A DNA stretch of 63,771 nt, the filler included, from Reclinomonas americana ATCC 50394 (Eukaryota): the NCBI GenBank assembly GCA_048213135.1. It is 15 parts of 15 records of this genome, joined end to end, with 100 filler letters (N's around TTAATTAATTAA, not from the genome) between each part and the next. Parts side by side here need not be neighbours in the genome. Positions count along the whole stretch, not along the records: positions 37,286 to 48,539 come from AFZH01020594.1; positions 48,640 to 56,739 come from AFZH01020595.1; 13 more parts are not named here. One strand, given 5' to 3'. Positions within the stretch are counted from its first letter, which is position 1. Each line of letters opens with the position of its first letter. A model generated the notes under the pieces. It was not told where the DNA came from. It saw nothing but the letters and a program-made list of their open reading frames with translations, and made no database searches. Positions 3,319-60,000 of the stretch are shown piece after piece. The position numbers and the translations under genes were made by a program.

Positions 3319-3360
<42 letters not shown>

Positions 3361-5614: not shown

Positions 5615-5646
<32 letters not shown>

Positions 5647-23913: not shown

Positions 23914-23960
23914 TGCGGCGCAGCTACAGTGCATGCATGCTACATATATTGTATTGTATT

Positions 23961-38087: not shown

Positions 38088-41000
38088 ATGCGACCGCATC
38101 GGGCGTTGCTTGTGACGCTGGTGAGCGTGGCGCTCGCGTGCAGTGTGCTTTTCGATGGAGGGTGGTGGCTTGTGCAGCGCGTCTCGGCGCAGGACAGCAC
38201 CACGTTTCAGGGTGTGACCATGTACAGGTGTGTGTGTTCTGATTCTTTTCCTTGCCACGGATGATGATGATGACGAATGACGATGTGTCCGGTAACGCAG
38301 AGTGGAACCCGACTTGTGGAAGAACGGCAGCGTCAGTGAGGCCGGCTGGCAGTTCTGGTACTTTGATGTCACCGATACGTTTATCGATATCACGCTGACC
38401 ACCAGGTGAGTGTAATGAGTCTTTCCGCCTTCCCTCTCCCACTTGCACATCGGAAGGAAAACAAATGAGGCACGGTAGCCTACACAGTGGAAAGCAGAGT
38501 AACACGATATGCGGGGCGAGAAGATGAGGGAGAAGGCGGAGAAGCTCGCTTGTGGTTTCTCTGTTTTGTTGCCCACTCCCACACTTGCACATGGAGCACA
38601 TCGACCACAAGGAAGAGAAGAAGAAGCTCGGAACCCACCAGCATCCACTCCTCCTCTCTCGTTGCACTCTCTAGCAGCACAAGGAAAACAATAAATCCAA
38701 CAGAGTGGAACGCAGAGAATCACAAAGAGAAAAGGGAGAAAGAAGTATACTCTCTCTCTTGTTGCACGAAGCGCAAGGAAAGTAGAAGCTCAGAGCTCGC
38801 CGACTTCCACTTCTCTCTCTCCTTGCACTCTCTCGCACTTGCAACTGAGCACAAGGAAAATAAATGATAGCCTACAGTGTGCGGAGATAGAAGGAGAAAG
38901 AGAAGAAGAGGAAGCCGCTTACGGTGTCTCTCTTGCACGCTTTCGAACTTGTAACTCGGTTGCGCACGTCCACGGAGCTCAAGAAAAGAAGAAGCTCACA
39001 GCTCGCCAACTTACACTCCTCTCTTCTCCCTCTCTCGTGCACACTCTCCCTCTCTGTGATCCTTCCCTCCCTCCTCCTCCCTTTCGTTGATCTTCCCTTC
39101 TTCCTTTCCCAGGTGCAACGGCACCACCAACGCCGGCCTGTACGGCGACCCCGACATCTACATCATGGTCGACGCGTTCCCCGAGGTGGAGACCGTCGCG
39201 AATGTGATGCACCCGACGGCGTGCGTCAATCAGACCAAGTGTCGCTTCAAGTCACGCGCGTACGGCTGCGAGCAACTGATCGTGTTGAACGACGATCCGT
39301 ACCACGCCACCGGCCGTCACATTGTGGGCATGTATGGCCACACGGGCGCCAGTTTCGAGATCACGGTGGATTTGCGCGTCTCGGCTTTCATCTGCGTCGA
39401 CCCCAACAAGGGCATCCGTGACTACGATTGTTGTGTTGCTTCCTGGGGTTTTTCTTGGAGACGTCACGTGCATGCTATTGACGACGGCATGCAGGTAACT
39501 TGCTGCAGGACATGTACATCAACTGTCGCGGTGATCGATGGAAACGACACAATGGGTGGATGCAAGTTGGCAGGGTATGAGCACGAAGACTCTCTCTCGC
39601 TCTCTACTTCGAGGTCACTGAGAGAGCGTGCGCAGAAACCATGCCAGTGGGAGGGCGTCACGTGCAACAAGACTGGCTTTGTCACTCACTTGTTGCGTCA
39701 TGGCTAGTCCGTTTCCCTCACGTCACTTCACCTCACTCGTGCCTCCGACGACGCAGAGACCTGCCGGACAACAACATTGACTGCCGGTTACCCAACGCTC
39801 TGCGCGACATGAATGGCCTAATTCGACTGTTTCGTTCATCCCACCCACGCTTGACACACAGTACCTCACCGAGGCGTCATGTATCTCACGCAGCAACTTG
39901 CGCGACAACCTCTTTTACGGTGACGTGCCGTACCAATTATACGAGTTTTGCAACCACATGTTGCGTTCACTGACCTTCTCCTCCGCATCTCCCTCTCTCT
40001 ATTTGCTTCTCACTTTTCCAGCTCGCACAGTGACCTCTCCAACAACCTCCTGTCGGGCGAGTTGACGGCGGGAGTGAAACCAGCCGTGAATCTCACGCAT
40101 TTGTTGCGTGCGCTCACCTCACCAAACATCGCTCGCGGCTGCCACTCACACTCGATCACGAACGCAGAGCTCTGGGTGGCAACTCTTTCACCTCCTCCAT
40201 CAAGATGGTCGGCTCCACGCCTACGTCCTACATCAAGCCCATCTTCTTTCAGCAGATCGGAATACAACTGGAGTACCTGTGCGTCGGTGGCAGAGGTGAG
40301 CTCCAGTTTTCTCTCACAACTCACCGCGCGCACAACTGCAGAGACTTGGGTCGCAATCGACTGAGCGGACCTCTGCCACCAGCCTTGCAGAACATCACCA
40401 CACTGCAGTACTTGTTGCGTGCATCTCGCGCGTTGTCGCCCTCACCTAACATGACTCACTCGTTTGAGCGCAGAGATTTGAGTTGGAATCAGTTTGTCGA
40501 CACCGTGCCCGTGTGGTTGTACACCAAACTACCGGACCTCCTCGTGCTGTTGCGTGAAGGCGTGAGTGCTGCTGGTCTTGCACATGCATTCTTACTGGCG
40601 AGTGGCACAGAAAACTGCAACGCAATCGACTCACTGGCAAGATACCGGGCTTGCTGTTTCGCATCCCCCTGCTGACGCACATGTTGAGTGCATGTCTCTC
40701 CACTTGAGCAGTAGAGAGGGATCTCTGTATGTGCTGATCAATGTGTCCGCACAGAGACTTGTCGGAGAACAGTTTTTCCGGTCTCATCAACGACTACCCC
40801 GGATCGCAGACGATTGAGTATCTGTGCGCGTGTGAACCGCTGTCGCCCTTTCTCATCTCACCGCACTGCTACTCACCACACCACCTATCACAGAAAACTC
40901 GGCGGCAATCCGCTCATCACCGGCGACATTCCAGTGCAGATCTACAACTCGCTGTCCCTCAAATTCGTGTTGCGTACATGCTTCGCTCAGTCCGCTTCCT

Positions 41001-44000
41001 CCATCTTCACTTCTTCATTCAATGTGTGGTCGGGTCATACGCCAGCAACGTGTCGCGTACTGGTCTTTCCAGTTACTTCAGTGTGCAATGGTCGCGATTG
41101 CAAAAGCTGGAGGTGTTGTCTCTCGAACAAATCAAGTTGATCGAAAGTCCGCTAGGTGGCACTCACCCGGCCACAACACTGCCGAGCGCCATTGGTCAAA
41201 TGGCCGCATTGCAGTATCTGTTGCGCAGCATGGGAGGTGGCGAGTCGTGCCGTTGCCCTCCCCTCTCACCACACTTTTTGTCACAGCAATGTCAGCAATA
41301 CCGGACTGACTGGTGTGCTGCCTTCGTCCATGAGCTCGTTGACAAAAATGCGGGCACTGTTGCGTCGTGCTGAATTCGTCATGGCACTCTTGTGGTAAAG
41401 GAGGGTACTCATTTTCGAGTGGTGGTGCCATGCAGTGACGTGTCCCTCAACTCCTTCACCGGCGGTTTGCCGGCCATGAGCACGTGGACACAACTGACGT
41501 ACTTGTTGCGCATGAACATGAACATGCTGTTACAGCAATGCACACATGCGCATGCACTCACTCTGTACATCTACAGAGATGCACGCTTCAATCAGCTCAC
41601 AGTGGCACCAGCGCCAGCATTTTGGGCGCTGCCGGCACTGATCTACGTGTTGCGTGCTGCCGAGGAGATTAGAACACCTCACTCGTCTCTCACAGCACTC
41701 TGCACGCAGTGACTTGGATGCCAACTTTATAAGTGGCACGCTGCCATCTACTCTTGGGCGAATCGAGTACATGTTGCGTGCCGCCACTGCAGCAGCCAGT
41801 TTCCTCTCTGTCTCCCATCTCATATTGTTTTTTATTGTTGCAGATCATTGCGGTATAACAAGTTCACCGGCACCCTGCCCACAACATACAACATCAATTC
41901 CGTTCATATGTTGCGTTGTTGGCACCGCATTCCGACAGAGAGTGTTGTGTTGACGTTGAGGGTGTTCGCAGAAACTTCGAGCGCAATCTCTTCAGTGGAT
42001 CAATGCCCGCAGCCCTCGGGCAGCTCAGACTCCTTCGCTTCTTGTTTCGTTTCCTTGATGCGCGTGTGGAGGGTTGGGGAGAAGAGCCTAATTGTGTTGC
42101 ATCGCTTATCACCAGGAGTGTGGCCTACAATCGCCTCACTGGCGTCGTGCCCGACTTGAGCAATCTCAATGCGGCTATGTACATGTTGAGTTGGTGTCTC
42201 CTCTCCATCACTCGGTCGCCCTTTCCACCCTCACCCTTCTCTGTCGCAGCGACGTGTCGCACAACGACCTTGTCGGTGCAATCACATGGGAGCGCGACAA
42301 GACATTCCAGCATCCGAGCTTGCGCATTTTGTTGCGTCCTGCAGCACTCACTGTAGAGTGCCAATCATTCACTGATTTGCCTCACTTCTCGCGGTGGCAC
42401 AGCCGCGCCGTGGGCAACATGTTGACGAGTGCACTGCCGTCGTTTGCAACAAGTCCAGATCTGCGTGAACTGTTGCGTTTTGTGTGGTTGTCGCTCCATC
42501 GTTGTGACTTCTCACTCTCCTCTCTTCACACAGTGCCATCACTCGCAATCGGTTCACTGGAGGTTTCCCTGTCGAAGTGTTGTCGTTCAAAAGTGTTGCC
42601 AATCTGTTGCGTTGCACTCACACACGCACAAACTCGCGCATCATCAACTCACCACTGCCACTGAGCAGATATCTCGAGGCCAATGCACTGAGTGGCGGAC
42701 TGCCAACGTTTCCATTACGAACCGTTCTCAGCATCCAGTACCTGTGAGTGGACTGGCTTCTGTGGCGGCGCTTGACGCCATCGTGATACTAACATGTTGC
42801 GCCCACAGAGGACTGGGCAAGAACCGCTTCAGTGGATCCCTGCCAACCACCATTCGACGCCTGCTTGGACTGAAAACATTGTTGAGTGCTCCCACTCACT
42901 CATCCACTGTTCAAGACTCAACATTCAATGTGTCACTGATACACACTCGCAGAACACTGCACGAGAACCAGTTGTCGGGCACGATGCCATCGTTGTCAGC
43001 ACTCGATCAGCTGCAAACTCTGTGCGCAGTGCTCCAGCCTCCTCATTGACCCCACCCTGCCTCATCTGTTTTTCCAATGCAGACTCATTCACGACAATCA
43101 GTTCTCCGGTTCCATTACCTCTGCTGCGCTGCCGGTGTCATGCACTATGATGTTTCGTCGGTGACGAATCGAGCCCCCCTTTCTTGCACCGGACCAACTT
43201 TCTAGATTTGTATATGCACAGTGTGGCTTGCAGCAACTCTTTCTCCGGCAACTTTCCCAGTTTGGCCAATGTCCCGTTCATTCGTCACCTGTTGCGTGCG
43301 AGCAGAGAGAGTGAATGCGCTCACAACCGTCTCCTTACTCACTCCCCTCGACACAGCGATGTCAGCGACAACTCCTTCGCCGGCGACCTGCCGGACATGT
43401 CACCAGTCGGCAGCTCACTGCAGTTTTTCCTGTTGAAGAACAATAGAATCACCTCGTTTGTGCAGGCCGGACGTGCCGGCAGCTTGGTGGAACTGTTGCG
43501 TGCACTCACGCGCGAGAGTGATTGTCATTCTGCGACTAACACGTGAATGTGTGCACAGTGACATGCGCAACAATCCTGTGGCCTCCATCACGCAGCTCGA
43601 GTCGGCTGTGGGCCTCACTTACATGTTGCGCTTCTCTCTCCTCTCCCCATCCAACCACGCTGCCACTCACCCACGATACACAGCGATCTGGTCGGCCTGC
43701 GTGACACATCCTTTTCACCAGTGCTGTCGCAGTTCCGCAAGCTGGAGCACTTGTTGCGTGCTCTCGATGCGTGCTCAGTGTAGACGACGCACTTACTTAC
43801 AGTCTGTCCTCAGTGACATTGGAGGCACACGGTTGCGAGGTGCCATGTTTCCCATTGACGTGTCGTCGGGCCTCGAGTATCTCGACGTCAGCGGCCTCTC
43901 GCTCACTGGCAACTTCAAACCGTGGCAGAATCTCACGTCTTTGATCGAGCTGTTGCGTGATTCTCTGTCCCTCTGCTGTACATTGCTTGCAACTCACATG

Positions 44001-47000
44001 CTAGTGACCAGGCACATGCAAAGCTCGTCCATGGATGGTGCAATCAACCCAGCAGTAAAGATGTTTACTCGCCTGCGCTACTGGTGAGTACTGCTTTGCG
44101 AGCACACACGATGGTGTTCCTTGCCGACACACACACCACCTCTGCACACAGGAACCCGTCGTCGACGCAACTGAGCGGTTCATTTCCTTCGGAAATCAGT
44201 TCACTCCGGTCACTGCGTGTGCTGTTGCGTTGCGAGTCAGGAGCACAGCTCCGGTCTCTCGTAGTACTCATTGTTTGGAGACAATTCACCCCTGCAGACT
44301 GTTGAACAACATGCCAAAGATGAATACTGGACTGCCGGCAGCCTTTCAAAGCCTGACGAGCTTGGCGCACTTGTTTCGTTTTCGCAAGCATCTTCCCTTG
44401 TACCCTGGTACGCACTGACTTTCATACAGAGTAATGTCGAAGATCAGGGTCACTGGTGGCATCACCAACATTGTGTCTCCTTCGCTTGTGGAATTGTTGC
44501 GCCACTGTGATGTCGCTCGCCCTCATCCCTTCATTCATTCATACATATTCATGTTGCACCTGGCAGCTCTGCTCCTGGTCTCGGGTTCACGGGTCAACTG
44601 CCAGCCGTCGCCGCCCCCAAGATGCTGTATCTGTGCGTCAGCAAGCTTGGTGGGAGGATTGTTGTCGCCAGCCACTCACTCTTCTCTCATGCACACAGTG
44701 ATTTGCAAAACAACGCCTTGACAGGCGAGTTCCCGCAATACAGCAATCTGCGCGGAGCATTGTACATGTTGCGCCACGGATGGCCCTCTGTCTCTTGCTT
44801 CTTGTTGGACACTCACAAGTGCGAGCAGAAATGTGGCCGGCAACAAACTCGATTTGCTCTCCGGCTCGACCAAGAAAACCAAATCGGCGACTGCGCCGTC
44901 GGACGGCAGCATCCTCAGCGATCATGGTGGCGGTGAATCGGATCCGCGGTTCGAAGCGCGCTCAGCTTCGTTTGGAACAGCAGAGCGCGCCCGTGGTTTG
45001 CGACATGCGGTATCCAGTCGAGCCTTCAGCTCTGCTTTCGATCAAGTCGTCTATCTGTTGCGCACCGTTCACTATTCTCTCTCTCTCCAAACGAGGCCTC
45101 TCACGCTTCACACTCTGTAGCAACACCGCCCGCAATCCAATCGAAGGCGAGTTGCCAACCGACTTGGCAGTCCTGCGTCGCCTCCGTTGGTGGTGAGCAT
45201 GCACGTGAATATTGCACTGCCACCGTATCGTCATTGAGCCACTGATATTGTGTCGCTCCAATCAGGGACTGTCGCAATAACTCGATGCGTGGCAGTGTTC
45301 CGAAGTCCATCGGTTCCATTGTTCCGCTGTGGTACCTGTGCGTTACCGTCTGTTGTTGTCGCGTTCTTGTCGGGCAACTCACCGCATCGGAGGCAGTGAT
45401 CTCTCCGACAATGATTTCACCGGTCTCATTCCGAACGAGATTGGCCAACTGAAGCAGCTGACGTATCTGTTGCGTGCTGCTGCTGTGCCACAGCCGACAT
45501 GTTGCATTTGACTCACGCATGGTGGGTGGTGTGCCAGAAATCTGTCACGCAATCGTTTCGAGGACGACGTGCCTGCGTTCTTCGCCGATGTCAGCTACAC
45601 AGTCGATGTGACTGGCAACGACTTTGACTGCCCCGTGAACTCTTACAATTCAACCAATCCGACCATTTCCTGCAGTTGCGTGCCGTTGTAGAGTGGAGAG
45701 ACTCAGTAGATGCATCACACGAAAGCGATGCACTTGCAGGCTGCCCTGCCGGATACATCATTGTCAAGTACACATCGCCGTGTCTCGGCTGTCCCAAGGG
45801 CACTGTTGCCGAAAGTCTCACCGCCACCACATGCACCAAGTGCCCCAAGGGCTACTACCAACCCAACACACTGTCGACGTTGCGTCAATGTGTTGCTCTC
45901 TGCTTGCTTGCAATAATCGCTCACTTGTACCCGTTTAGGAAATGCCGCAAGTGCCCGCCCGGTCACTACCAGGACGAGATTGGCATGCCGAGCTGCAAGC
46001 TGTGCCCGCCTGGCTACAACATGAGCACCCCAGCGGCGCCCATCTGCCTGGCATGCGCTGCTGGCCTGTACGCACAGTACTTTGGCACGGTCAACTGCGA
46101 TCCGTGCCCGCCCGGATTCCGATCCAATGTTTCGTGTCACGAGTGTGCGCGTTTCTCCGCGCTTGTTCCCCCCTCAAGAGAAGTGAGAGATGCAGGGCAC
46201 GGCCAAGTTCTGCAATGAGTGTCCGCGTGATTCATACTCGGAGATATATGGCGCCCGTGTGTGCACCAGCTGTCCGCAGAATACTGGATCGGAACAGGCC
46301 GCCGGTATCTCTCGCTCGTTGTGCCAGTGCAATTTTGGTGAGACGCTTGATGATCGCCATCGTTCCCTGCAGTATTCTCATAGCTTGCGTGTATCCTATC
46401 TGCAGGCTACATGGGTCCCGCCGGCGGTCCCTGCGAGCGCTGGTGGATTGTGGCACTCGTGTACATTATCGTTTTGTTGCTTTTTGTTTATCTGCTGGCC
46501 CACCTGATCTCGGCTGGATTCGCGGCACGGGCGCGGCTGTATGTGAAAAAGGTCTGCACTGCAGTCGATCATGTGATTGCTGCTTTTGTTTCACTCACCA
46601 CCCAACACACGCACGCACATGCAGGACGAGCTGGATTATGTGCACAGTTGAGTAGTTCTTTTTACACACAAAGAGAGAGAGAGAGAGAGAGCCACGTGAA
46701 TCTCACTCGATCGACATGCACAGCTTCCCTGGGAACAGCGGTGCCACCAGGACAGCGCTCGGCTCGCTCACACGTGTCGGCCAGATCCGCAGACAAGCGC
46801 AGTGAGCTCACCTTCGAGGAGGAAGTGGCGTTTGATGACGTGCCTGAGGCACCGGCCCTGCGCGACGTCGACGCCAGTGTGCAGCTTCGTCTGACTGGTG
46901 ACGAGGATCAGTATCAAGTACGCGAGCTGCTGCTGAATGCACGACTGCAGGCACAGATCGGTGAGTGCATGTCTGTGGCACACTGCTGCAAACGCGCACT

Positions 47001-48019
47001 GTTGTTCATTTACAGCTGTGTTGCTCGAGTGCAGCTGCTCGTCGTCATGCCGCAGAAGTGGCATTGCTGTCACACACAGAAAACGCGGCGGAGACTGCCG
47101 AGTTGGAGAGACGAACAAAAGCCCGTCTCATCTCCCAGAACTGGAAGGTGTGCGCACTCCCCGTTTCTGTCGCGCCCTTACTCTCTCACTCACCCTTTCC
47201 AACCCATCACGCGCACAGCGTATTGTGGAAGTCACGCACCCCGAAATGCTCATGGAGGAGGCGGAGGATGAGCATGGCATGCGCACCGACCGCAATCCTC
47301 ATACCTCCATGCGCGACGGCTCGTTCACCAATCGCTCTAGCTTCCCAACCTCTCGTCCCGGTACGGCGGCAGCACCACTTACCGCCACCGACATCGGCAC
47401 CTTCCGCAACGCCGAGCCACCAACAGAGCGATACGGTGCCGATCTGCTGCCGGAGTCACCGTCGTCGCCCGACACGGCGAGATCGCCCTCGGCCCGCCAG
47501 CCACTGCTGTCGCCGCCATCCGTGACGACGACCACAACCACCACGACCGTGCCTCCCCCACCGCCAGTATCTGCCATGCAGCCGTCACAGCGGCGGCCTC
47601 CGAGTCGGGAGCCGGCTGCCGGTGGCAAGGTCGCTCGCAAATTCACTCGGCAGCCGGCCAAACCGACGCCTCCTGCACCACAACCACCGCCCAGACCAGC
47701 CGCACCGCCTCCGCCTCCTGCGCCGCACGCAGCACGACCAACGGCATCGTCGCTCCAACGTACGGCCTCGGTCGCCAGCTCGTCCGACCTGCAGCTGTCA
47801 CGACAACCGTCGGGACGCGCCACCACGCCGTCCACGCAGGCGCGTCGTCCGTCCGTGTCTGCCACTGGCGCACGGCAGGGAGCCGCGGAGCAGGAGGCCG
47901 CGAAACGGCGGCCAGCCACCACGGCTGCCGCCGGGTTCGATTTGAACGATGACGACGACGATGGGGAGGAAGAGGAGGACGACGGCGACGAGGAACCGCC
48001 ACCAGAGCACGGTTTGTAA
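38088..48019 (+). CDS. Giant LRR receptor-like protein 1: signal, PPC-like domain, LRRNT, ~40-45 plant-type LRRs with island, Cys-rich repeats, TM, kinase-less cytoplasmic tail; ~52 introns
   Basis: Exon-by-exon manual splicing gives one continuous frame: GDPDIYI (PPC-like), GDRW..NGW...PCQWEGVTC (LRRNT), repeated LxLxxNxLSGxLP units, CxxCPxGxYQ repeats, TM WWIVALVYIIVLLLFVYLLAHLI, and a Pro/Ser-rich tail. TAA at 48017-48019. Confidence 0.9.
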
Positions 48020-48256
48020 CTGCACCACTTGTGTGTTATTCATGTCTGCTTCTCTCTTTCTCTCATTCGTCCTCCGTGCGACAGTGACATTGGCGTTTGT
48101 GAAACGACGCGATGACCGTGGCGACGATGGTGGTGGCGTTGGTCTTTAATTAAAAAAAAAACACCTCGATATCAGCAGTGATGAAGATGATGGACGACTG
48201 CGACACACACTTCGCGCCACAACAACGAAAGAGGCACACAACGCACAAGCCACGCA

Positions 48257-51200
48257 ATGCGGCCGCTGGCGGTTTACACAGCGCAATGTAGACCGCCGCG
48301 ACGTCGACATCGACATCGCACACTGTTTCTCATTCTGCTCTCCGTGGCCCTTTTCACCTGCGTACTCTTCGATGGAGGAGGAGAGCACTCGTGGCTGCAG
48401 TGGCGCCCGCAAGTGCGCGGAGTGGCCGCCGAGGAGTCCACGGTGGTCGGCGGAGTGACCATGTATCGGTTTGTGTGTGTGTGTGTGCATGTGAGATGAG
48501 TTGATGAGAATGTGTCCGGAGGCTGGTGTGACACTCTCGNNNNNNNNNNNNNNNNNNNNNNNNNNNNNNNNNNNNNNNNNNNNTTAATTAATTAANNNNN
48601 NNNNNNNNNNNNNNNNNNNNNNNNNNNNNNNNNNNNNNNTCCCTCTCTCCCTCTCCCTCTCTTTCTCTCTCCCTCTCTCCCTCTCCCGCTGTCGTCGCTT
48701 ACGCTTGCTTGCTGGCGGGTACGCTCGCGCAGAACCCGTGCAGTTGGTATGGCATCACGTGCAACAAGACCGGATTCGTGACAAGCATGTTGCGTTGTCG
48801 CTGCTCCGATCACCGCGTGTCTCAAGTCTCTCACGGGTTCCGCGCACAGCAACATGCCAGACAATAATATCAATTGCCGCCTGCCCAACGCACTCCGCGA
48901 TATGAATGGCCTCATCACTCTGTTGCGTGATTCCAATCACCCGTACGGCAGTTTGCCGCCATCGCACCGCCTTACTTGTGCTGCCGCGGCAGGAATTTGC
49001 GCGGAAACAACTTCTTTGGCGAGGTTCCATACCAACTCTACGAGTTTTGCAGCTACATGTTTCGTGCGATGGTCGACGATCTCCGTCTGCGATGTGTCGT
49101 CGCACCTGACTCTCTCTCTCTCCGTGCAGTGACTTGGCGAACAATCAGCTGACGGGCGAGCTGAAGGCGGGTCCCAAGCCGTCCGCCAACTTGACGCACC
49201 TGTTGCGTGTGCTGCGTGCCGAAGACGCCAGCGTATGTGCCTTATTCTGTTCCTTGTCGCGCGCAGAGCACTTGGCGGCAACTCTTTTACCTCCTCCACG
49301 AAGACTGTTGGCTCCACGGTCACCAACTTTGTCTCTCCGACATTCTTTTCGCAGATCGGCTCGCAACTCACCTACCTGTTGCGTCTTCTGACAGTATCTT
49401 CGGTGTGAGTGAGTTACATGCGTGTTACTCACTCATCTTCTCGCGCAGCGATCTTGGACGGAATCGACTGAGTGGCCCCCTTCCTCCGGCTATCCAGAAC
49501 ATCACCACCCTCGAATATCTGTTGCGCCTCGCTCTCTTGTTCTGCCTCCTCTTTGTCACTGACTCTTCTCTGTGTGAGATAGTGACCTGAGTTGGAATCG
49601 GTTTGTCGATACAATTCCATCGTGGCTGTACACCAAATTGCCGTTATTGCAAGTCATGTTGCGTTTTGCACCGCATTCCATCCCCCTTTTCCATAGCGCC
49701 TTACTCGTTTGCGTGTTCGCAAGCGCAGCAAGTTGCAGAACAATCAACTTTTTGGTTCAATGCCCCAGCAAATCTTTCAGCTTGTCGACCTCTTGCACAT
49801 GTTCCGTCGTCGCCGCGACACGAATGTCGGGAGCAATGTCGTTTCTGTACTCATGGTCCTGTTCGTTCTGCTTGCGCAGCGATTTGTCGGAAAACAGGTT
49901 TTCAGGAATCATTAATTACCGTGCCCAGGCAGTTTCAAAACTGCAGTACCTGTTGCGACCCTGGCCGTGAACTCTGTTTGTCGTCTTTGTTCCTTCTTGT
50001 TCACAGCTTCTCTGCTCAGAAAACTTGGCGGCAATCCACTCGTCACTGGCGACATTCCGGGGTCGGTGTACGATTCACTCAACCTCAAGTTTCTGTGCGT
50101 ACACTAATTTTGTTACACGCCCTGTTTCCCTTTTTCCAATCTCTCTCACTGTGCACTTGCTCGCAGGAATCTATCGCGCACTGGCCTGTCCGGCTTTCTC
50201 AGTCCCGAGCTGAAGAAACTCACGCTACTCGAGGTTCTGTCGCTTGAGCAAATCCAGCTCACCCAGACGCCGTTGCCGAACACGCACCTTGCCGGCACCA
50301 TCCCGACAGAGATTGGGCTAGCGGCCTCTCTCCAGTACTTGTTGCGAAAGACACCGCTATGTGCTTGAGGTCGAGACTCTTCTCGTCTCTCACTCTCCTC
50401 GTTTTTGCCATCATTCTGCAGGAATATTAGCAGCACTGGCATGTCGGGCACGCTACCATCGTCCATGTCGTCGCTCACCAAGATGAGGGCAATGTGAGTA
50501 TTGTTGGCAGAGAACAGTCACGATGTGAAGCGCCGTTCACCTCTGCTCTCCCTTCCAGGGATGTGTCGCTGAACTCATTCACTGGTGCCTTCCCGGACAT
50601 GAGCAATTGGAGATTGCTGACCTATTTGTTGCGTCTCTGCTGCACGTCAGGCTGTGCGCAGACAATGTCGCTCACTTCGCACGAGAGCAGAGATTGTCGA
50701 CAAAATCGCTTCACTGCACCACCAGTAGCCGCGTTTTTCGCCCTTCCCAGTCTGATTTATGTGTTGCGTCGGCGTTCTCCTTTCTACTGACTGTGCATAC
50801 CCTCTGCCTTTGTCTCACACTGTCGCACGTGCCACTGTTGTAGCGACATGGACAACAATTTCATGGCTGGTAGTCTGCCCTCGTCGCTAGGAACAATCCA
50901 ATACTTGTTGCGTACTTTTTCTGCACCCACATACTTTTGCCACACGTCCCACTTGTCCTCTCGTCACAGCTCGATTCGCGGCAACCGGTTCACCGGGTCA
51001 CTGCCGACGGCCTACAACAATAGCGTGTTTCATTTGTTGCGTTCTTCGCATGCTACAGTGTGCCAGCGTTGTCGACGGTGCCGACGCTCACAGTGTCGTG
51101 CGGTGCAGAAATTTCGAGAGGAACTTGCTGTCGGGCACAATGCCGACGCAGCTCGGGCAGCTGACGCTCCTGAAATTCCTGTTGCGTCAGAGCCTGCGTG

Positions 51201-54200
51201 AGAGTGGGTGAGGGGATTTGCTTCTGACGGAAATCTCTGTGTGCAGGAGCGTCGGCTACAATCGACTGACAGGCTCTGTTCCCGATTTCAGTGACTTGGC
51301 CCAACTGTACTATCTGTTGCGTTCATGCTGGCTGGCGCTGCGTTTGCTTGATGGCGGAGACGTGACGTTCGTACGTGTAGTGACTTGTCTTTCAACGATT
51401 TCACCGGCACCGTGACGTGGGAGCGCGACAAGAACTTGTCGAAGCATCCGAATTTGCGCATCTTGTTGCGTCGCCTTTGTTGTTGCCATGGGCGGTGACT
51501 CTGCACGAGGAGGTTGCCATGGTTCTCATTATCGTTGTTCTGCAGTCGAGCGGTCGGCAACATGCTGTCGGGCCAATTGCCACAGTTTGCATCGAGTCCA
51601 GACTTGCGTGAGCTGTTTCGTCTCTCTCTCTCTCTTTGCATGCCTGCATGCGTGTTTTCACTGCGCTTTACATTTGACGACGCGAGTCGCAGTGTGGTGA
51701 CGCGCAATCGATTCAATGGTACCTTTCCTATTGAGGCGGGCGCTGCGAGGAGTCTGCGTGAATTGTTGCGTTGTGTTGTGGGTTTGCGAGAGTCTTCTGT
51801 TTGTTGCTACAGCTGACTGGGCGCTCAATCGCAGGCGCCTCGAGTCCAACGTGCTGAGCGGCACTCTGCCGGTGTTCACCAGTGACAAATTCATTCGTCT
51901 GCAATATTTGTGCGTGTCGCGTCCCGCGTAACTTGTGATATACTGCTTGTCCTGACGCACCGACACACCGACACACAGTGGTCTCGGCAAGAACAAATTC
52001 TCCGGCAGTGTGCCCACCAGCATCCGTGAACTCGACACAGTGATCCAAATGTTGCGCGCGCATTCGCGCAGCTCTGCATACTTCTTCATGCGCAGCGCTC
52101 ACTCTCTCTGTCCATCGAACAGGACTCTGCATGAGAATTCATTTACGGGCAGTATTCCGTCGCTTGGTGCTTTAGACTTTTTGGAAACCATGTGCGTGCA
52201 CCACTCCGTGCACGAGATGTGTATCGCGACTGCTCACTCGCATCGCCGATGCTTGTAGCCTTCTGCATGCCAACCAGTTCACAGGCACTCTCACACCACT
52301 GGTCTCTCTCACCTCTTGCCAGACAATGTGCGGCTGAGTTTGTTTTGCGTGTCGGTGTAATCGACTAATCGCTTCTTACCGTGTTTCTTCATTGTGTGTA
52401 GTGCACTGGCCAGCAACTCCTTGTCGGGCACAATGCCATCGTTTGTTGGCTTGCCGGCACTCAAGTATCTGTTGCGTTGTTGTCACGGTGGAGCTGTGTC
52501 AGTTCTTTGTTCATCAATCTGAACATCTCGTGTACCATCAGCGATCTTTCCGACAACTCGCTGGCGGGAGTGATTCCCGACATGCAGCCGGCGGTGCAGT
52601 TGCGCTTTCTGCTGCTGAAGAACAACAAGTTCACCACATTCCTGCAAGCCGGTCGTGCCACCAGTATGGTGGAACTGTTGCGCATTGAGCCTACTGTGAG
52701 TACTCGCGCGACGAAGGCACCGTTGCTGACTGTGAGACGCAGTGACATGCGCAACAATCCTCTGACCTCCATCACATTGTTGGAGGGTGCCACTGGCCTC
52801 ACGTACATGTTGCGTCGTGGGAGGGAGGAGAAGTGGGAGCGCGAACCAATCACCATCATGTTCTCCTTCCACACTCACGTACACACGCTCTCACGCTCCC
52901 GTCTTTCTCTGCTACTCCCTCGCCTCACACACCCTCATCTGCTGATGTTCACCGGTGTTTCGTGCGTGTGCACAGCGATCTGGTCGGCCTGCGCGACACC
53001 ACATACTCGCCAATCCTCTCCGGTTTCAAAGGGCTGGAGCACTTGTTGCGTGCTCTGCTTCTGTCTGCGTCGCCGCACCGTTCGCCTCGTTGCGCGCTAA
53101 CACCCCTTTTTCTTTTCTCTTGATTCGCAGTGATATCAGTGGCACGAAACTGCGCGGCAGCATGTTCCCCATCGAATTCTTGAATTCGCTCGAGTACCTG
53201 GATGTGAGTGGTCTCTCACTCACTGGCAACTTCAAACCGTGGCAGAATTTGACGTCACTGCTGGAGTTGTTGCGTGCGACTTTCGTGTCCATCCTGCTGG
53301 TGGGAGCCATTGATTGTTGACGTTGTTCGCTTGTGCATCATCTCCAGGCACATGCAAAGCTCCAGTATGGACGGAGCCATTGATCCGACAGTCAATCAGT
53401 TCACACGCTTGCGTTATTGGTGCGACACAACCCGGGATGTCCCTGCAATCCGCAGCTGCACTTACCACACAATTATTGACGCAGGAATCCGTCATCCACA
53501 TCACTCAGCGGCTCGCTCCCAGCAGGCATCAGCTCGCTTCGCAATCTCCGCGTATTGTTGCGTCTCGTTTACTCCTTTGTATCGTTTCAGCTTGCTCACC
53601 CTCGCACAGACTCTTGTCAAGCATGCCCAAGATGAACACTGCGCTCCCGGTTGCCTTCCAAAGTCTCTCCAGCTTATCGCACCTGTGCGTCTGCGACCGG
53701 TCGGCATGCCATTTTTATGTCTTCTCATCCATGTGCTTCTCCCCCACATGGCAGAGTGCTGTCCAAGATCAAATTAACGGGCGGCATTCTCAATGTAGTC
53801 TCGCCTGCACTCTTGGAGTTGTTGCGTTTTGGTGCCACTGTGTTTGCAACGACCGAGATAATAATGCAAGACTGAGCGCATTCGCACCGCAGGTCAGCGC
53901 CAAGTCTCGGGCTCACAGGACAGCTGCCTGCCGTCTCGGCACCCAAGATGTTGTATCTGTGCGTCTCTCCCGTCTGCACTTGCGTCGAGCACAACTGACA
54001 CTCATCGACGCAGAGATCTACACAACAATACGTTTACTGGCGAGTTCCCGCACTACGCAAACCTTCGTGGAGCGCTGTACATGTTGCGTACGGGTGGGGG
54101 TATGTGTGCACGCTCGTTCTGTGCGCTCATGCACACAACCCCAGAAACGTGGCCAACAATCGATTGAATCTGCTGACGGGATCGACGGCAAATGGGAAAA

Positions 54201-56739
54201 AATCGGCGAGCACAGTGGATGAATCACCGTCGCTATCGCTGGCCTCGGTCGGTGAACGGCCTCGGTTCTCGCTGCGAGCCGTGGACTCGCTGCTTGATCA
54301 AGTGGTGTATCTGTTGCGTGCATGGTGCTGGAACTGAAAGAGTGAGTGTGTGCCGAGTATTGACTGGGTATCGCGAATTGCGTGGCGTGTAGCAACACCG
54401 CCGGTAATCCGATTGAAGGGCTGTTGCCGACGGACCTCAGTTTCTTCCGTCGTCTCAGTTGGTGGTGCGTGGACCGGCAGTGTTTGCTGATGATGTGGTT
54501 GGTACTCACTGATCTTTTAACCGGTGCAGGGACGCCCGAAACAATTCGCTTCGAGGATCCCTGCCAAAGACCATTGGAAAAGTCAGCCGCCTGTGGTACC
54601 TGTGCGTCATGCTGAATCTGTGATATATGTAGGCCTCGGTAGCTGACAACGTTCACAGTGACTTGTCCGACAACGACTTCACGGGCCTCATTCCCAACGA
54701 ATTGGGCGACTTGACGCAGATGACGTACTTGTTGCGTGCAGCGAGGATCGCAAGAGAGTGCGCAATGAGCACCGTGGCATCTCATCTATTTCTCTCTCTG
54801 CCAGGAACTTGTCGGGCAATCTCTTCAAAACCAACGTGCCGTCGTTCTTTGCCAAAGTGAATTACACGGTCGATGTCAGTGGCAACGACTTTAGCTGCCC
54901 GATTTCCTCATACAACTCCACCAACCCGACCATCTCCTGCAGTTGTGTACGGAGGGGACGCACTAAGTTTTTACTGTCGCATGTGTACTCAAACAGTGTG
55001 TGCACTTCGTGCAGCGTGTCCGGCTGGCTACATTGTCGTCAAATTCACTTCACCGTGCCTCGGCTGCTCGCCAGGCACAATCGCTGCTACGCTGTCGGCC
55101 AAAGTGTGTACCAAGTGCGCCAAGGGCGAGTATCAACCGAAGAAGCTGGCCACGTTGCGTTTCCTTTTTCACAACGACGTGTGCGTGTTTTTTTGGTGAA
55201 TTCACCCTTAGCTTCTTCTCCGCCAACGCGCAGCAAATGCTTGAAGTGCCCTCCCGGTCAGTACCAGGATACGCTCGGCCAGTCGTCGTGCAAGCTGTGC
55301 CCTCCTGGGCTAAACATGACCAGCAGTGGCGCGCCCGTGTGCCTCCCATGTGCCAGTGGCCTGTACTCGCAGTACTACGGTGCTGTGTACTGTTCTTCGT
55401 GCCCGCCCGGCTTCATTTCGGGTGTACGAGCGCACTACTGCAACGAGTGCCCGCGCAACACGTACACGGAAGTGTACGGAGGCCGCGAGTGTCAGCACTG
55501 TCCCGAGTTCACCAGCTCAGAGCAGTCGGCCAGTTCCTCACGTTCTCTGTGCCAGTGTGATTTCGGTGCGCCGTTCTTTTGTCTTTTTCTTTGTCTGCTC
55601 ACCTCCTCCTGTCGCTAACTTTTACGGCGCGCAGGGTATATGGGACCGCCTGGGGGGCCTTGCGAGCGATGGTGGATTGCCGCCTTAGTGTTCATTGTTT
55701 TTGTGCTCGGCATTGTGTACATTGTGTCGGACGTGGCATCCAACGCCCTGTCCAAGCGGGTGCGCGCCCGGGCAAAGAAGGACGAGTTGGACCACGTGCA
55801 AGGTGGGGGCGTTGTCGACCTTTGCCTCGCACTGCTTTCAGCTAGTTAATCTCACTTTCCCTCGACCTCTCACGATCCGCAGTCGGCATGGGTACGGCAC
55901 CAGGACCGACCGGACCTCGCAGTGCTCGGTCACACGTGTCGGCACGCGAAACCGATCGCCAGAGCGAGCTCACCTACAACGAGGAGGTGGCCTTTGATGA
56001 CTTGCCCGAAGGGCAGGCCGCTCTTGGACTGCGCGGATTCGGTGACGGAGAGCAACTGCGACTCACTGGCGAGGAGGAGCAGTCGGATGTGCGAGAGCTG
56101 CTCCTCAATGTGCGCCGGCAGGCACAGATCGGTGAGTCACGTGTCGTTGCTGCGCGTGACGCGGGCGGTTCTTATATAAGGTGTATGTGCAGCTGCTCGG
56201 CGGCACGTGGCCGAGATTGCACTCAGTGCCCATGTCGACGGCGCGGAGACGGAGGAGCTGGAGCGCCGCACGCGTGCCCGTATCATTTCGCAGAACTGGA
56301 AGGTCTTTCTGTTTCTCCCCGTGCACGTGCCTTGCGCGTCGTGAACTCACTCGAAGCGATTCGTACGTGCGACTCGCAGCGCATTGTGGAAGTGACGCAC
56401 CCAGAAATGCTGATGGAAGAGGCGGAGGATTCACGAGGCATGCCCACAAGCCGCAATCCCTTCTCAGCCATGCAAGACGGTTCGTTCACCAACCGCTCCG
56501 GCTTCCCCACGACAAGACCAAACACCGCCGCTGCTGGCGCCTCCTCCGCCACCACCGCCGCCACCCCGCCCAGCGGGCTGGGACCGACTACCGCTGCTGG
56601 CGGCTCCATTTCTTCGGTGGTGGTTCGGACAACAGTACCTGGTCACGGCGGCCTCGGTGTCGGCGGCAGCTCCGCCACCTCGGCCAGTAACTCGGCTCTC
56701 GCCTCCCCGCACATGCAGACGCCGTCGCCAATCGACAGT
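48257..56739 (+). CDS. Giant LRR receptor-like protein 2, tandem paralog; exons 2-4 fall in gap 48540-48639 and the 3' end in gap 56740
   Basis: Collinear exon for exon with copy 1 (e.g. NMPDNNINCRLPNALRDMNGL, TWERDK, GNFKPWQNLTSL, CERWWIAALVFIVFV, RIVEVTHPEMLMEEAED). The first exon ends in the same GVTMYR. Confidence 0.9.
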
Positions 56740-57021
56740 NNNNNNNNNNNNNNNNNNNNNNNNNNNNNNNNNNNNNNNNNNNNTTAATTAATTAANNNNN
56801 NNNNNNNNNNNNNNNNNNNNNNNNNNNNNNNNNNNNNNNAGAGAGACAGAGAACTAACGAGGAAGTCGGAGGACGACAACAAGATGCTGAGACTGGTTCT
56901 GCGATCGAAAGCGAGAATGCGAGGAAACTGAAAAGACGGAGGATGATGAGAGAAGACAGAGCGAGTGAAGCAATAGAGAGTGGACATGAAACGGAGTGAA
57001 GCTCTCTCTCTCAACCAAGTA

Positions 57022-60000
57022 CCATCCTTGCCAAACGTGACCGCCTTGGACATCGGCAACGCAGTGACCAGCACACGCCGACCCACTGCTGCACTCTCGT
57101 CGATCTCCAGCGTAAAACCATTAGCCTCGAAAATCTCGCGATTCTCCATCATGATCAACTCCTCTGCTGCGGTGAGCTCCATGCGCAGCGGCCTAGTATC
57201 AGCAGTGTCAACACGAAAGGTGCGAATGACATTGACAATAGAGAGAGTTGCACGAAACGAAATGAGCCGCTGCGTGTTGATAATCGTGGAGCGCTGGAGT
57301 GTTTCGAAGCGGTACATCTCGTCGGTGGCATGCTGGTCCACGATAAAGAGGTCCTTGTGCAGACGAGCGACAATGAAGCCGAGGTTGAACTGGCCGACAA
57401 CGTGCATACGTCTGTAAAAGAGAAAGAAAAATGGGGCGAGTGAGTGCCAGAGGACGATTGACACGCAATAACTCTTGATGATCTTGGTCTCTTTGCCCCC
57501 TGTTCATCTCTCTGCCACATCCGAGTCCCACTGCACCTAAAATCATCTTTGGAGATGGTTCGTCGCAGCTCCTCCTCGCAGGCATCATTCGAATCCACCG
57601 CCAACTTGTGGCTGAAGAACGGCGCTGTTGCGGTTCCCGCTGACGACGAAGGCATGGCATTCCGTGCTCCCGGTCGCGGAAACGCGGGTCGCACTTGATC
57701 CAACTCGCCCGTGTGCAAGCCGGAACGTCGGAGTTCGGCAAGATCCAGCTTGACGCGCAGTGCACCTGTTGGTGGTGCGCAAACTACAGCAGACAGTGAG
57801 ACGGGAGAGCACGAAAAATTAGAAACACGCAACACCAGGACGCAACACTCTTCATCTGCCGCAGACGGCATCTCCACAAGCTCGTGATAGCTGGTGGCGC
57901 GAACTGGAGCAATGATGAGCGTTCAGGCTTCACTCGCTCACTTTCAAATACAACTGACCACTCACCTTTCTCTTCCTCGTGGACAGCATCGCCCCCTGAA
58001 TGACCACAACAGCCGCCGCCGCCGCCGCCGCCTGCGTGGTGGTGCGGACGCGAGGGTGATGACATGTCGCCGGCCGACTGCACGAAAAAAAGCAGCCTCG
58101 TGAGAGACTGCGAGGAGCGAACGGAGCAGCGCACAACACACCGACGGCTCATCTGTCATCTCCGCCTCGTCGTCATCACCGTCGTCCACGGCCATTCCTT
58201 CCTCTTCGTCAGGCTCCGCCGCCCGACTGCTGGGTTCAGCAGGCAACGCCGCTGACGACAAGGCATCGTCGCCGTCATTTTGTTTCTGCGCAGACACGTA
58301 CGTGAGTCACCCCGATTTACAACGTGCACACACAGACAAACACACACATACGCAGACCTGTGCCACGCGACGAAAAAAGTCGGGTATCTGAACAGTGCCA
58401 GTCGCGGGCGGGTCCTTTCGTTTGCGTGGCGCCGGTGGAGGAGAACTTAGGTTCTGTGATGGCCATCGTAAACGAGAAAAGTGTTGAGCGACTGTCGCAC
58501 ACAGAGCTGAGAGCGGTGCTGTGCGTACGCAACACCAAGCGCCGGCGGTGATGTCAAGGTCGATGCGGTTACGGGAGAGCGATCCGCAGCGAAACTCAGC
58601 AAATTCCTGCATGTCAGCACGCCAGTACGTCACTTTCCACACCGGCAGCAGTGCACACATCCAGTGAAAAGAGAACGCAACTGCACGCGCAGTACGGGCG
58701 CGACTGATGGTCGCTCCTTGCTCGGCGTGATACTGCGAGACGATGAAGGAGAAGGAGGGGGAGGGGAAAGGGGAGAGGAGGAGGAAAAGAGAAGGAGGGG
58801 GAGGGGGAGGGGGAGGGAGGAGGAGTAGGAGAGACGGTGAAAATCAAACAAATGAAGAAGAAACCCAAAAAGACGAAGAGAAACAAGGGAGAAAGAAGCG
58901 GACAAGAAAAAGAAGAGATAAGCATGAGCACCTCAGATTAAGCAGACGACCGCGAAACGGTGCGACGCAACAACGACATGTCAACATCCGCAATCGGCTT
59001 GTGAGTCGATTTCTTCTCTTCAGATGACAGTTCTCCTCGCTCCACTCTCTCGTCCTGGCGCTGCTCCACAGCTTTTTCCCTCACAGGCGGCTCTCCCTCG
59101 TCCTCATCCTCATCTTCGTCCTCGTCGGTGCTGTCTGAATCGGCGACCGACTGCGAGGCCGACGACTGCGACTGCGAGCGCTGCAACGACGACTGCTGCG
59201 ACGAGAGGAACTCGTGCATGGAGGCCTGTACGGCGAACGACTGCTGCGATGGCTGCAGCAGCTTGGCGAGGTGTTCCTGTTCATGAAAAGTAATGCGGTT
59301 CAGACGGCAAGGTGGGAGAGAGGCATCGACAAGCAACCAGTCTGCACCTTTAGCAGGTCAACCAGCTGCGCTTCGTCTTGCAGCAGAACTTGACGCTTGT
59401 CGGGCGTCAAGTTGACATCAAAGGTGGCTACAAAAGTGGGAATGAGGAGAGCGAGAACGCTGGAGCAGACAGTGTCACGTGCAAATGCATACCTGGCGCC
59501 GCCTGGATACCAATGACAAACACCGGCGGTCTCTTCTCACTCAGTGCGCGGTACGACTCGCGAATCGCTTTGGTGATTCGCGGCATCTCCACAGGCCCTG
59601 TGCGAAACAAGAGTGAGTTAACTGACGGATTGCGCGTGCGGGGGGTGAAAGGGACAGCACGAAACGTCCATTCAGGAACAGATATTGACGCTCTGTCGAG
59701 GTCTTGCTGTCGGCGGATGACGTGAGGTCCGACACGAATCCACTCACGCTGCGGAAGAGAGAAGGGGGGACAGGTGGCAAAAGCCAGTGGGTGGATAATG
59801 TCAAGTAATGCACACACAACGAGACAGGCGAGAGAGAGAAGAATCAATTGAATGTCAGTGCGATAAAGAGGAGATGAGAGGAGGATTGGAACACAGCAAG
59901 AAAGAGAGTGAAGGGCACCACCGAACACACCTCCAATGCGCCGCGGAGAAATCCACCGGCAGCAACGACTGCACATGCTTGCGTCCAAACACCTCACAAA

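Follow-up and report, generated by a model that had tools for sequence, protein, structure and literature searches.

A one-base-longer 5' splice-site form associated with the last exon base in predicted introns of Reclinomonas americana

The LUC7 study reportedly divides 5' splice sites into 'left-handed' and 'right-handed' ones, and Roca and Krainer are said to have described, in 2009, a shifted (+1) register of U1 on human 5' splice sites; the U6 ACAGA box is the complement of the classical intron-side class. Compensation between the last exon base (-1) and intron position +5, with AG//GUNNN and NN//GURAG as the two classes, is established in animals and plants according to the cited portion of PMC11732430. 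Bulge (+2/+3) registers of U1 were described in human by Roca et al. 2012 and Tan et al. 2016, with 68 predicted sites, as recounted in the cited part of PMC4856993. Among lineages with transformed donors, the sections cited here list Entamoeba, with GUUUGU donors and a co-evolved U1 (ACAAAC), Mastigamoeba, with GUGCGC donors and U1 ACGUAC, and Thecamonas and the Mamiellales, in which C at +4 accompanies a standard U1 (10.1101/2022.06.08.495308); a large share of 'non-canonical' introns is attributed to T. trahens and others in the cited part of PMC11347168.

We analyzed a window of 63,771 nt (filler included) that joins 15 parts of the R. americana ATCC 50394 assembly GCA_048213135.1 and contains a tandem pair of LRR-receptor genes on the plus strand. 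Gene A (38088..48019) has 52 GT-AG introns, and its predicted spliced model is a 5808-nt CDS for 1935 aa with a terminal stop only, in which a signal peptide is followed by an N-terminal domain, ~32 LRR units (32 LRR-like motif matches, spaced by ~24 aa), Cys-rich repeats, a TM segment, and a tail. In its paralog, gene B (48257..56739), the 5' part is missing because of the N gap at 48540-48639 and the 3' end enters a gap at 56740, leaving 46 introns downstream of the N gap plus the donor at 48469 upstream of it. The two proteins are identical at 1004 of 1550 aligned residues (64.8%), with no junction-linked gaps, and the gene B exon 55235-55564 matches Pfam Ephrin_rec_like (1.5e-19). As in major U2-type introns, all 98 complete introns of the pair are GT...AG, and splicing them out restores an open frame in gene A.

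All 99 predicted donors of the two genes were classified as shifted, with G at +6 (GTT(G/T)NG or GTT..G), or unshifted, with G at +5. After an exon-final G, none of the 15 donors is shifted, 14 being unshifted and one, 56303 (aag/GTCTTT; the slash marks the exon end), belonging to neither class, compared with 69 of 84 shifted and 15 of 84 unshifted after A, C, or T (Fisher p=2.4e-9); the first-pass annotation had estimated 0 of ~16 and ~69 of ~83. Most of the LRR introns are not independent, because they lie inside a Leu/Ile codon and the -1 T is inherited: 76 of the 84 phase-2 introns leave an exon-final T, since they split an xTN codon and are copies made with the repeat. Within phase 2, all six donors with -1 G are unshifted, and those with -1 T comprise 62 shifted and 14 unshifted. 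One of the former belongs to an LRR-position intron that splits a Trp codon (44084..44151, plus strand; ctg/GTGAGT), and the donor table has further unshifted donors with -1 G at LRR positions at 45193 (plus strand; gtg/GTGAGC) and, as gene B homologs, at 53420 and 54465. The introns in phases 0 and 1, which are not of the LRR type, include eight unshifted donors and the one of neither class after G, and five shifted and one unshifted after A or T. The donor of the intron at 39566..39635 (plus strand) is ambiguous between 39566 (caa/GTTGGCAGG) and 39575 (agg/GTATGAGC), which are 9 nt apart and in the same frame; because of the gap, this intron has no counterpart in gene B.

Outside the pair, 89 introns of ~8 genes in the same 64-kb window were taken from a self-trained predictor, without individual curation; it used donor signals but not position -1. 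In this predicted set, 34 donors are unshifted and two shifted after G, and 14 are unshifted and 23 shifted after other bases (p=2.4e-7); filtering to 68 introns gives 23/2 and 10/18, respectively (p=3.9e-5). Thus, within the window, the association extends to genes unrelated to the LRR pair. The shifted form follows G at 2 of 51 donors (0/15 in the LRR genes and 2/36 of the shifted or unshifted donors elsewhere), both predicted, at 24009 and at 33113. The latter, an exception that had already been pointed out, is confirmed as a predicted donor (gag/GTTTCGT) of a 66-nt intron (33048..33113, minus strand) in a CFAP54-like gene, of which exon 35938-36246 matches Pfam CFAP54_N (7.6e-17). Predicted shifted donors after other bases include act/GTTGCGT in the same gene (34284..34352, minus strand), with an ACTCAC branch motif, and gca/GTTGCGT (58607..58681, minus strand) in a MutL/PMS-like gene, the exon 57087-57410 of which matches Pfam MutL_C (5.5e-13). 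The heptamer GTTGCGT occurs 62 times on the two strands of the window and is preceded by G once, at a site that is not a donor.

Could the coupling lack a functional basis and be a by-product of the descent of LRR exon-intron units, duplicated along with their T/GTTGCGT, of coding constraint, and of prediction bias? The xTN-splitting repeat copies with exon-final T and the use of donor signals in predicting the non-LRR introns are what such an account would expect. Against it stand the association in unrelated genes and in the phase 0/1 introns of the LRR genes, the place of position -1 outside the predictor, and the LRR-position introns that split Trp codons, all of which, with their -1 G, are unshifted (6 of 6 in phase 2). 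Moreover, 44 false introns called antisense by the same predictor show no association between the -1 base and class (p=1.0), nor do the other GT sites of the window, where the shifted share is 11.3% if G precedes and 8.7% if another base does. We therefore regard an account without functional coupling as very improbable.

The donor classes interconvert between paralogous introns, as the first-pass annotation had claimed: the class differs at 7 of the 46 positions compared between genes A and B (all coordinates on the plus strand), and all three pairs that it had quoted carry the donor sequences given. The unshifted cct/GTGCGT of the gene A intron 40279..40341 differs by a single T from its shifted gene B homolog, cct/GTTGCGT (49378..49448), and conversely, the shifted cgt/GTTGCGT of gene A (40969..41045) corresponds to the unshifted tct/GTGCGT of gene B (50095-50166). 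Six of the seven switched pairs retain the -1 T. The remaining pair, the phase-1 intron 46647..46723 of gene A (aca/GTTGAGT, shifted) and its homolog 55803..55882 of gene B (aag/GTGGGG, unshifted), is the only one with different -1 bases, and here the class changes along with them, A going with the shifted and G with the unshifted form, as proposed. Two introns are present in gene A only: 46129..46195 (aat/GTTTCGT, shifted, -1 T), where gene B is exonic throughout, and 46552..46624 (aag/GTCTGC, unshifted, -1 G).

Apart from the donor, the two classes look alike. The commonest branch core is CTCAC in both, in LRR and other genes; the medians of the branch-to-acceptor distance are 16-19.5 nt and those of intron length 68-69 nt; and CAG acceptors account for 63/69, 26/28, 21/25, and 42/48 introns in the sets by class and gene group. 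A uniform branch motif close to a YAG acceptor is a feature of U2-type introns, seen here as sequence motifs alone. U12-type (minor) introns are marked by an extended, conserved /RTATCCTT-like donor and a branch site to match. They were rejected as an identity for the shifted class, as the donor tables show only GTTGCGT and GTGNGT and CTCAC is common to the ordinary introns. An introner or other mobile-element family was likewise rejected: comparing all 187 intron interiors with one another (blastn-short) gave no non-self hits at E<=1e-3, and the paralogous introns of genes A and B do not align with each other. The shared branch motif, spacing, length, and acceptor, together with the switches at 7 of 46 positions, thus support, from predicted introns, a single spliceosome that processes both donor classes and argue against an introner family.

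The position of the cut is constrained by the reading frame. With AG acceptors, the frame of both paralogs survives only if the cut is placed before GT. Furthermore, after exon ends in TT, where a purine preserves Leu, the downstream exon has one as its first base in 15 of 21 cases, versus 9 of 23 after CT (p=0.04), indicating that this first base is read as the third base of the codon. Frame, paralog alignment, and codon bias thus agree, for the predicted junctions, with the earlier proposal that cleavage stays before GT. If the catalytic U6 helix were instead positioned by the GCGU core, cleavage would be predicted one base further 3', with G exonic, the intron starting with UU, and the 3' end moved to match; at a few junctions both models yield identical mRNA. 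However, about half of the introns would then need non-GT/non-AG ends, and a separate 3' rule would be required despite identical 3' signals in both classes and despite the frame and AG acceptors that shifted and unshifted paralogs share. The downstream cut would also turn 15 LRR core positions, read as 14 Ile and one Met under the GT-AG model, into Met throughout, and it conflicts with the purine bias after TT. We consider it most improbable.

The reading we favor, with moderate confidence, is a lineage-specific, almost categorical 'seesaw' compensation between -1 and +5 at the donors of one major-type spliceosome, with two interconvertible forms. A single spliceosome of the major type (GT-AG, CTCAC branch, CAG acceptor) would excise all introns, and a donor could be defined either from the exon side, by an exon-final G followed by a loose intron side, G/GTG(A/C)G(T/C), or from the intron side, by a long, near-invariant motif after another exon-final base, mostly a pyrimidine. 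In the predicted donors, this motif is usually GTTGCGT and less often the one-base-shorter GTGCGT; the intron-side class mostly carries an extra U at +3. By virtue of that U, the seven-letter sequence G-(G/U)-U-G-(C/A)-G-U is common to both forms, its first G being exonic in the exon-side form and intronic in the intron-side form, and the cut would always fall 5' of GU. The intron-side form would make introns possible after codon positions barred to G, such as position two of the Leu/Ile codons in every LRR unit. Selection for recognition may be what couples the -1 base to the class, and the register in which the seven letters are read may be offset by one base or bulged.

The composition of the donors matches a seesaw in one respect, in that -1 G anticorrelates with the intron-side consensus, the core being loose after G and tight after non-G. 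The intron-side class is not GURAG, complementary to U1 and the U6 ACAGA box, the complementarity to ACAGA having been judged by eye. The seesaw leaves unexplained why the longer form outnumbers the shorter after non-G (69:15 in the LRR genes and 23:14 elsewhere) and why the core prefers C, in that the variable base of GNGT in shifted sites is C in 82 and A, the U1-pairing base, in 5 of 94, and classical intron-side sites favor A. C also prevails at unshifted sites after non-G (C 19/29, A 5/29), and after an exon-final G the counts are A 22/48 and C 16/48.

The first-pass annotation had further suggested that the intron's first G restores the pairing to U1 otherwise provided by exonic -1 G. 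Duplexes were folded in free register with the canonical 11-nt U1 5' end, AUACUUACCUG, which may differ from the organism's own. The mean over 92 shifted sites, in any register, is -0.6 kcal/mol, hardly any pairing, compared with -3.1 kcal/mol for 29 unshifted sites after non-G and -7.9 kcal/mol for 48 G/GT (G/GTGNGT) sites; removing the +3 T in silico stabilizes 87 of the 92 shifted sites, so that with canonical U1 the shift costs pairing rather than compensating for it. The clearly better +1-register pairing that marks the sites of Roca and Krainer was not found with this end, from which the organism's own U1 may depart. Pairing to the canonical U1 5' end therefore cannot be what favors the longer form; on a non-canonical U1, a shifted register may still apply. 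Of the earlier interpretation, the single spliceosome, the interconversion, and the lack of an introner burst are supported, the cut before GT is supported indirectly, and the restored U1 pairing is not supported as worded.

In keeping with these energies, we consider unlikely that canonical U1 binds in a +1 shifted register with G+1 pairing to C9 in place of exonic -1 G. The equivalence of the seven letters, G(G/U)UG(C/A)GU, holds; experiments in human cells have established shifted and bulge registers, as stated in the cited parts of PMC4856993 and PMC9311317; and, in base composition, position -1 of shifted sites cannot be told apart from position -2 of G/GT sites (p=0.29, at low power), although the comparison is uninformative, since the unshifted alignment fits as well (p=0.35). 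The core C, however, mismatches U1 position 5 in 82 of 94 sites, and purines at -1, able to pair or wobble with U10 in the shifted register, are under-represented at the shifted sites outside the LRR genes (6/25).

A U1 of the organism's own, sole or as a second variant, with a 5' end complementary to GUUGCGU (predicted ACGCAAC), is also rather doubtful, as is the attendant scheme in which GTTGCGT would be perfectly paired and G/GTGNGT recognized through a helix offset by one base or by canonical U1. Each of the seven positions of the shifted motif is very highly informative (+5 C 78-91%, +4 G 83-88%), as would result from a Watson-Crick partner, sites lacking -1 G favor C over A, and the Entamoeba and Mastigamoeba U1 sequences, as given in the cited sections, offer precedents (10.1101/2022.06.08.495308). 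Such a U1 alone would nevertheless give no reason for the avoidance of G before GTTGCGT, an Rfam gathering search of the window returned 0 hits to U1 or other snRNA genes, and other lineages with +4 C, Thecamonas trahens and Mamiellales, have standard U1 pairing regions in the same sections of that source. More broadly, it is possible, and we offer it only tentatively, that GUUGCGU, far from being a rare exception, is the standard mark of every intron lacking an exon-final G before it, read by either a complementary U1, sole or second, or a displaced or bulged helix tolerated by the catalytic core throughout the genome.

These donors bear on two open questions: does U1 pairing select 5' splice sites, or do U5/U6 contacts made later, and to what extent can the helix shift its register while the cut stays in place? 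They seem to constitute a natural experiment, in which an extra base separates GU from the core in roughly one-third to two-thirds of donors, according to a simple rule that depends on the base ending the exon, and the forms switch freely between young paralogs. If the junctions hold, snRNA sequences would separate U1 co-evolution from a tolerated bulge; and if the GUUGCGU reading is true, this would be the first known lineage with a non-canonical 5' splice-site register as a major, rule-governed mode of splicing. Standard donor matrices would score such sites as non-canonical, so that intron-rich genes, such as 50-intron LRR receptors, would be mis-annotated.

With the lineages that have transformed donors, as portrayed in the sources cited above, R. 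americana shares a G+C-rich core of the GUGCGU type, in which the unshifted form has C as its fourth base, and the question of U1 co-evolution applies to both; the cited portions describe for those lineages neither a second, one-base-longer donor nor an exclusion after exon-final G. As at human shifted and bulge sites, the familiar intron-side letters come one base late after GU, cleavage is predicted to stay at GU, and the first intronic G can fill the slot of exonic -1 G. In human, however, such sites are described in the cited parts as rare and chosen for better odd-register pairing to U1, whereas here they are the majority after non-G exon ends and have ~0 kcal/mol with canonical U1 in any register. 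With the seesaw systems, the donors share the strong negative link between -1 G and a full intron-side consensus, a single spliceosome, and the mixing of classes within genes. They differ in that the intron-side class is GU(U)GCGU rather than GURAG, mostly one base longer and bearing C in place of the classical A, and in that the exclusion, a statistical tendency in the classical systems, is near-absolute here, the shifted form being almost confined to exons that do not end in G.

Across all 99 donors of the two tandem LRR-receptor paralogs on the plus strand, gene A (38088-48019) and gene B (48257-56739), the class of the donor is coupled to the last exon base (-1). Donors with G at +5 (GTGNGT type) were scored as unshifted and those of the form GTT..G that have G at +6 but lack it at +5 (GTTGCGT type) as shifted; all introns are predicted, and donors are written as exon/intron. 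Exons ending in G are followed by 14 unshifted donors, no shifted donors and one donor of neither class, and the corresponding counts are 14, 64 and 0 after T, 1, 3 and 0 after A, and 0, 2 and 0 after C. The first-pass annotation had put the shifted donors at 0 of ~16 after G and ~69 of ~83 after other bases, which the computed tally reproduces (0/15 vs 69/84, Fisher p=2.4e-9), and the three paralogous donor pairs that it quoted read exactly as claimed. One donor of gene A is ambiguous, lying either at 39566 (caa/GTTGGCAGG), which fits neither class well, or, 9 nt on in the same frame, at 39575 (agg/GTATGAGC), which would obey the rule by joining a final G to an unshifted donor.

The models of both paralogs come from a self-trained splice-aware parser with signals and were subsequently corrected by hand against the genomic alignment of A with B. 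The spliced predicted model of gene A contains 52 GT-AG introns and a CDS of 5808 nt, in which the terminal codon is the sole stop; the predicted model of gene B begins at 48257, lacks the part that follows, which is missing in the N gap 48540-48639, and then continues with 46 introns. The two protein sequences align with 1004 of 1550 residues identical and no gap tied to a junction, and display ~32 LRR-like units with a spacing of ~24 residues, Cys-rich repeats (one exon matching Pfam Ephrin_rec_like at 1.5e-19) and a hydrophobic stretch in the translation that, judged by eye, looks like a membrane segment. Exons mostly measure 66-75 nt, corresponding to one LRR unit per exon, and phase 2 accounts for 84 of the 98 complete introns, the codon they split being that of a core hydrophobic residue. 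A protein search with the Cys-rich exon returned 15 matches, the top one at 42% identity and none a close relative; a metagenome scan with the N-terminal-domain exon as the query gave 65 pattern matches, none of which was confirmed, and a protein atlas look-up yielded bacterial clusters only and was uninformative. Intron 2 of gene A (38406-39112, plus strand), at 707 nt, is tenfold the usual length, and several similar units discernible by eye (…ctctcttgcac…caaggaaa…) suggest a tandem-like internal repeat. The window, nuclear DNA from a eukaryote rich in introns, is interrupted by 14 gaps spanning 3366-62703 (e.g., 37186-37285, 48540-48639 and 56740-56839), each consisting of 44 N, TTAATTAATTAA and 44 N, which amounts to a linker between contigs with stops in all frames; it therefore represents ~15 joined pieces, and the gaps swallow a 5' part of gene B along with the 3' end of its final exon.

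The LRR introns are not independent observations, because a phase-2 intron here follows the middle base of an xTN codon, so that the T at -1 is dictated by the protein sequence and passed on as each repeat unit was copied (62 shifted and 14 unshifted phase-2 donors after T), and independent evidence was therefore sought. Introns at LRR positions that split a Trp codon (tg/g) have G at -1 and are unshifted; this applies to each of the 6 phase-2 donors with G at -1. The phase-0/1 introns of both genes are not repeat copies; those that follow G comprise 8 unshifted donors and one of neither class, and those that follow A or T comprise 5 shifted donors and a single unshifted one, namely, the ambiguous 39566/39575 donor.

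Outside the LRR genes, the parser, whose donor model draws on intron positions +3 to +10 alone and ignores the exon, predicted 102 introns, which were reduced to 89 by the removal of two dubious chains, one antisense to a CFAP54-like gene and the other of low complexity. Among these 89 introns, taken from one 64-kb window as output by the parser (hand correction being confined to the LRR genes), 34 donors are unshifted and 2 are shifted after G vs 14 and 23, respectively, after other bases (p=2.4e-7). The association also holds for all 102 predicted introns (p=7.4e-6) and for a stricter set of 68 (unshifted/shifted, 23/2 after G vs 10/18 after non-G, p=3.9e-5). G precedes a shifted donor twice, at 33113 (gag/GTTTCGT), already quoted as an exception in the first-pass annotation, and at 24009 (ggg/GTTGAGG), a weak site. 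Thus, the coupling, which would have been undermined by a lack of association beyond the LRR genes, is confirmed on predicted introns and extends to other genes, so that it looks like a property of the donors of this genome generally.

The heptamer GTTGCGT itself occurs in 62 copies on the two strands, preceded by T in 48, A in 7, C in 6 and G in only 1 (binomial p=1e-5). Thirteen of the 18 copies outside the LRR genes are predicted donors, and the sole one that follows G, at 21421 (minus strand), is not a donor; taken separately, these 18 copies do not reach significance (1/18 after G, p=0.09). When the antisense strands of six genes were run through the same parser as a control, the 44 false introns showed no association (4/1 vs 25/4, p=1.0), and among all remaining GT sites of the window the shifted pattern tends, if at all, to be slightly more frequent after G (11.3% vs 8.7% after non-G, p=0.10).

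The non-LRR portion of the window contains several further genes. An M1-aminopeptidase-like gene (1133-5716, minus strand; ERAP1_C 1.6e-16, with the GAMENWG motif in one exon) is broken by lengthy low-complexity stretches of the (CT)n/(CCCT)n type that the parser misread as coding, and its predicted introns rank as the least reliable in the non-LRR set. Two long exons on the plus strand (8047-8730 and 9706-10263) resemble each other and methyltransferases (the first matches Methyltransf_24 at 1.6e-11) and are probably another tandem gene pair that the parser merged into one chain. Also present are a kinase-like gene, an E2-like gene (weak match), an Asp/Asn hydroxylase gene (Pfam 6.4e-27), a MutL/PMS-like gene (MutL_C 5.5e-13), for which a protein search with the MutL-like exon found no relatives, and the large CFAP54-like gene (CFAP54_N 7.6e-17). 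The open chain antisense to the latter (23644-27747, plus strand) contains 10 "introns," none of them shifted or preceded by G (each is unshifted or unclassifiable); it was treated as a false gene and represents an informal negative control.

Introns of both classes are alike in branch core, spacing, length and acceptor. In the LRR genes and the other genes, CTCAC is the commonest branch core in both classes, the median branch-acceptor distance is 16-19.5 nt, the median length is 68-69 nt, and the acceptor is CAG. The 46 paralogous intron positions of A and B include 30 that are shifted in both genes, 8 unshifted in both, 7 of mixed class and one that combines an unshifted donor with one of neither class. 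Six of the 7 mixed pairs retain T at -1, and in the 40279/49378 pair, a single T accounts for the whole difference between the donor motifs; in the only pair that differs at -1 (A at 46647, G at 55803), the class differs too. Two introns are confined to gene A (46129-46195, plus strand, aat/GTTTCGT, and 46552-46624, plus strand, aag/GTCTGC), both obeying the rule, and gene B reads in frame through their positions, indicating intron gain or loss after the duplication. An introner family was considered and rejected: the 187 intron interiors compared share no common sequence, with no non-self match at E<=1e-3.

Unless GTTGCGT is cut ahead of its first G, the 52 introns of gene A do not stay in one frame with AG acceptors, nor do the mixed paralogous pairs stay aligned. 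With the GT-AG cut, the split LRR core codons specify L in 38 cases, I in 14, F in 6, V in 3 and M in 1; a cut displaced by one base downstream at both ends would yield 15 Met at these codons. After TT, the downstream exon opens with a purine, preserving Leu, in 15/21 cases, compared with 9/23 after CT (p=0.04). The reading frame, paralog alignment and codon content lend indirect support to the predicted cleavage before this G. A single spliceosome, interconversion of the donor classes and, indirectly, an unchanged cut site, all put forward in the first-pass annotation, are supported; its proposal of compensation through U1 is not supported for canonical U1.

Aligned on the core, both donor forms display one seven-letter string, G-(G/U)-U-G-(C/A)-G-U, whose initial G belongs to the exon in G/GUGNGU and to the intron in H/GUUGCGU (H, non-G); in the proposed compensation, U1 would read the two alike. 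We computed duplex energies in any register, with bulges allowed, for the canonical U1 5' end as printed in PMC4856993, which may differ from that of this organism. The mean was -7.9 kcal/mol for G/GU sites (n=48), -3.1 kcal/mol for non-G unshifted sites (n=29) and -0.6 kcal/mol for shifted sites (n=92), the weakest of the three; the U at +3 costs pairing, and its removal in silico made 87 of the 92 shifted sites more stable. Which base occupies the variable position of the GNGT core likewise goes with -1 (A 22 and C 16 of 48 after G; A 5 and C 19 of 29 at non-G unshifted sites; A 5 and C 82 of 94 at shifted sites), in the direction opposite to that of selection by canonical U1. Thus, sites lacking the exonic G, being rich in C, depart from U1 complementarity; the coupling is real, but, given the duplex energies and the core base, compensation via canonical U1 fails to explain it.

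Two alternatives remain. The snRNA partner might be non-canonical, in which case the complement of the motif would be ACGCAAC; co-evolved U1 5' ends are on record for Entamoeba and Mastigamoeba, a standard U1 persists in further lineages that have C at +4 (bioRxiv 10.1101/2022.06.08.495308), and an Rfam gathering search of the window gave no matches, so that it contains no recognised snRNA gene. Or the motif might be read by something else, with the extra U bulged. Shifted and +2/+3-bulge registers of U1 are proven at rare human sites (PMC4856993; reviewed in PMC9311317). A comparison of exon-side composition between the classes had no power to discriminate between the shifted and bulged registers, and the non-LRR shifted donors prefer a pyrimidine at -1 (T 11, C 8, A 4, G 2), which neither simple register predicts.

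Full-text literature searches found no description of GTTGCGT/GUUGCG as a donor motif, the matches being primers and unrelated uses, and nothing on the longer donor form in the literature on Thecamonas splice sites and introns. Many "non-canonical" donors are reported for a few protists (PMC11347168) and may be related. It has long been established that G at -1 is negatively linked to the donor's intron side (5'/3' compensation, or seesaw linkage), a relation now framed as AG//GUNNN vs NN//GURAG classes, which are attributed to loop 1 of U5 and the ACAGA box of U6 (PMC11732430). On balance, we lean slightly toward the view that the donors described here follow a seesaw rule that is near-categorical, particular to this lineage and marked by an intron-side donor one base longer. 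Compared with the classical classes, the intron-side class of the window is one base longer and carries C in its core, and its exclusion after G is near-absolute.
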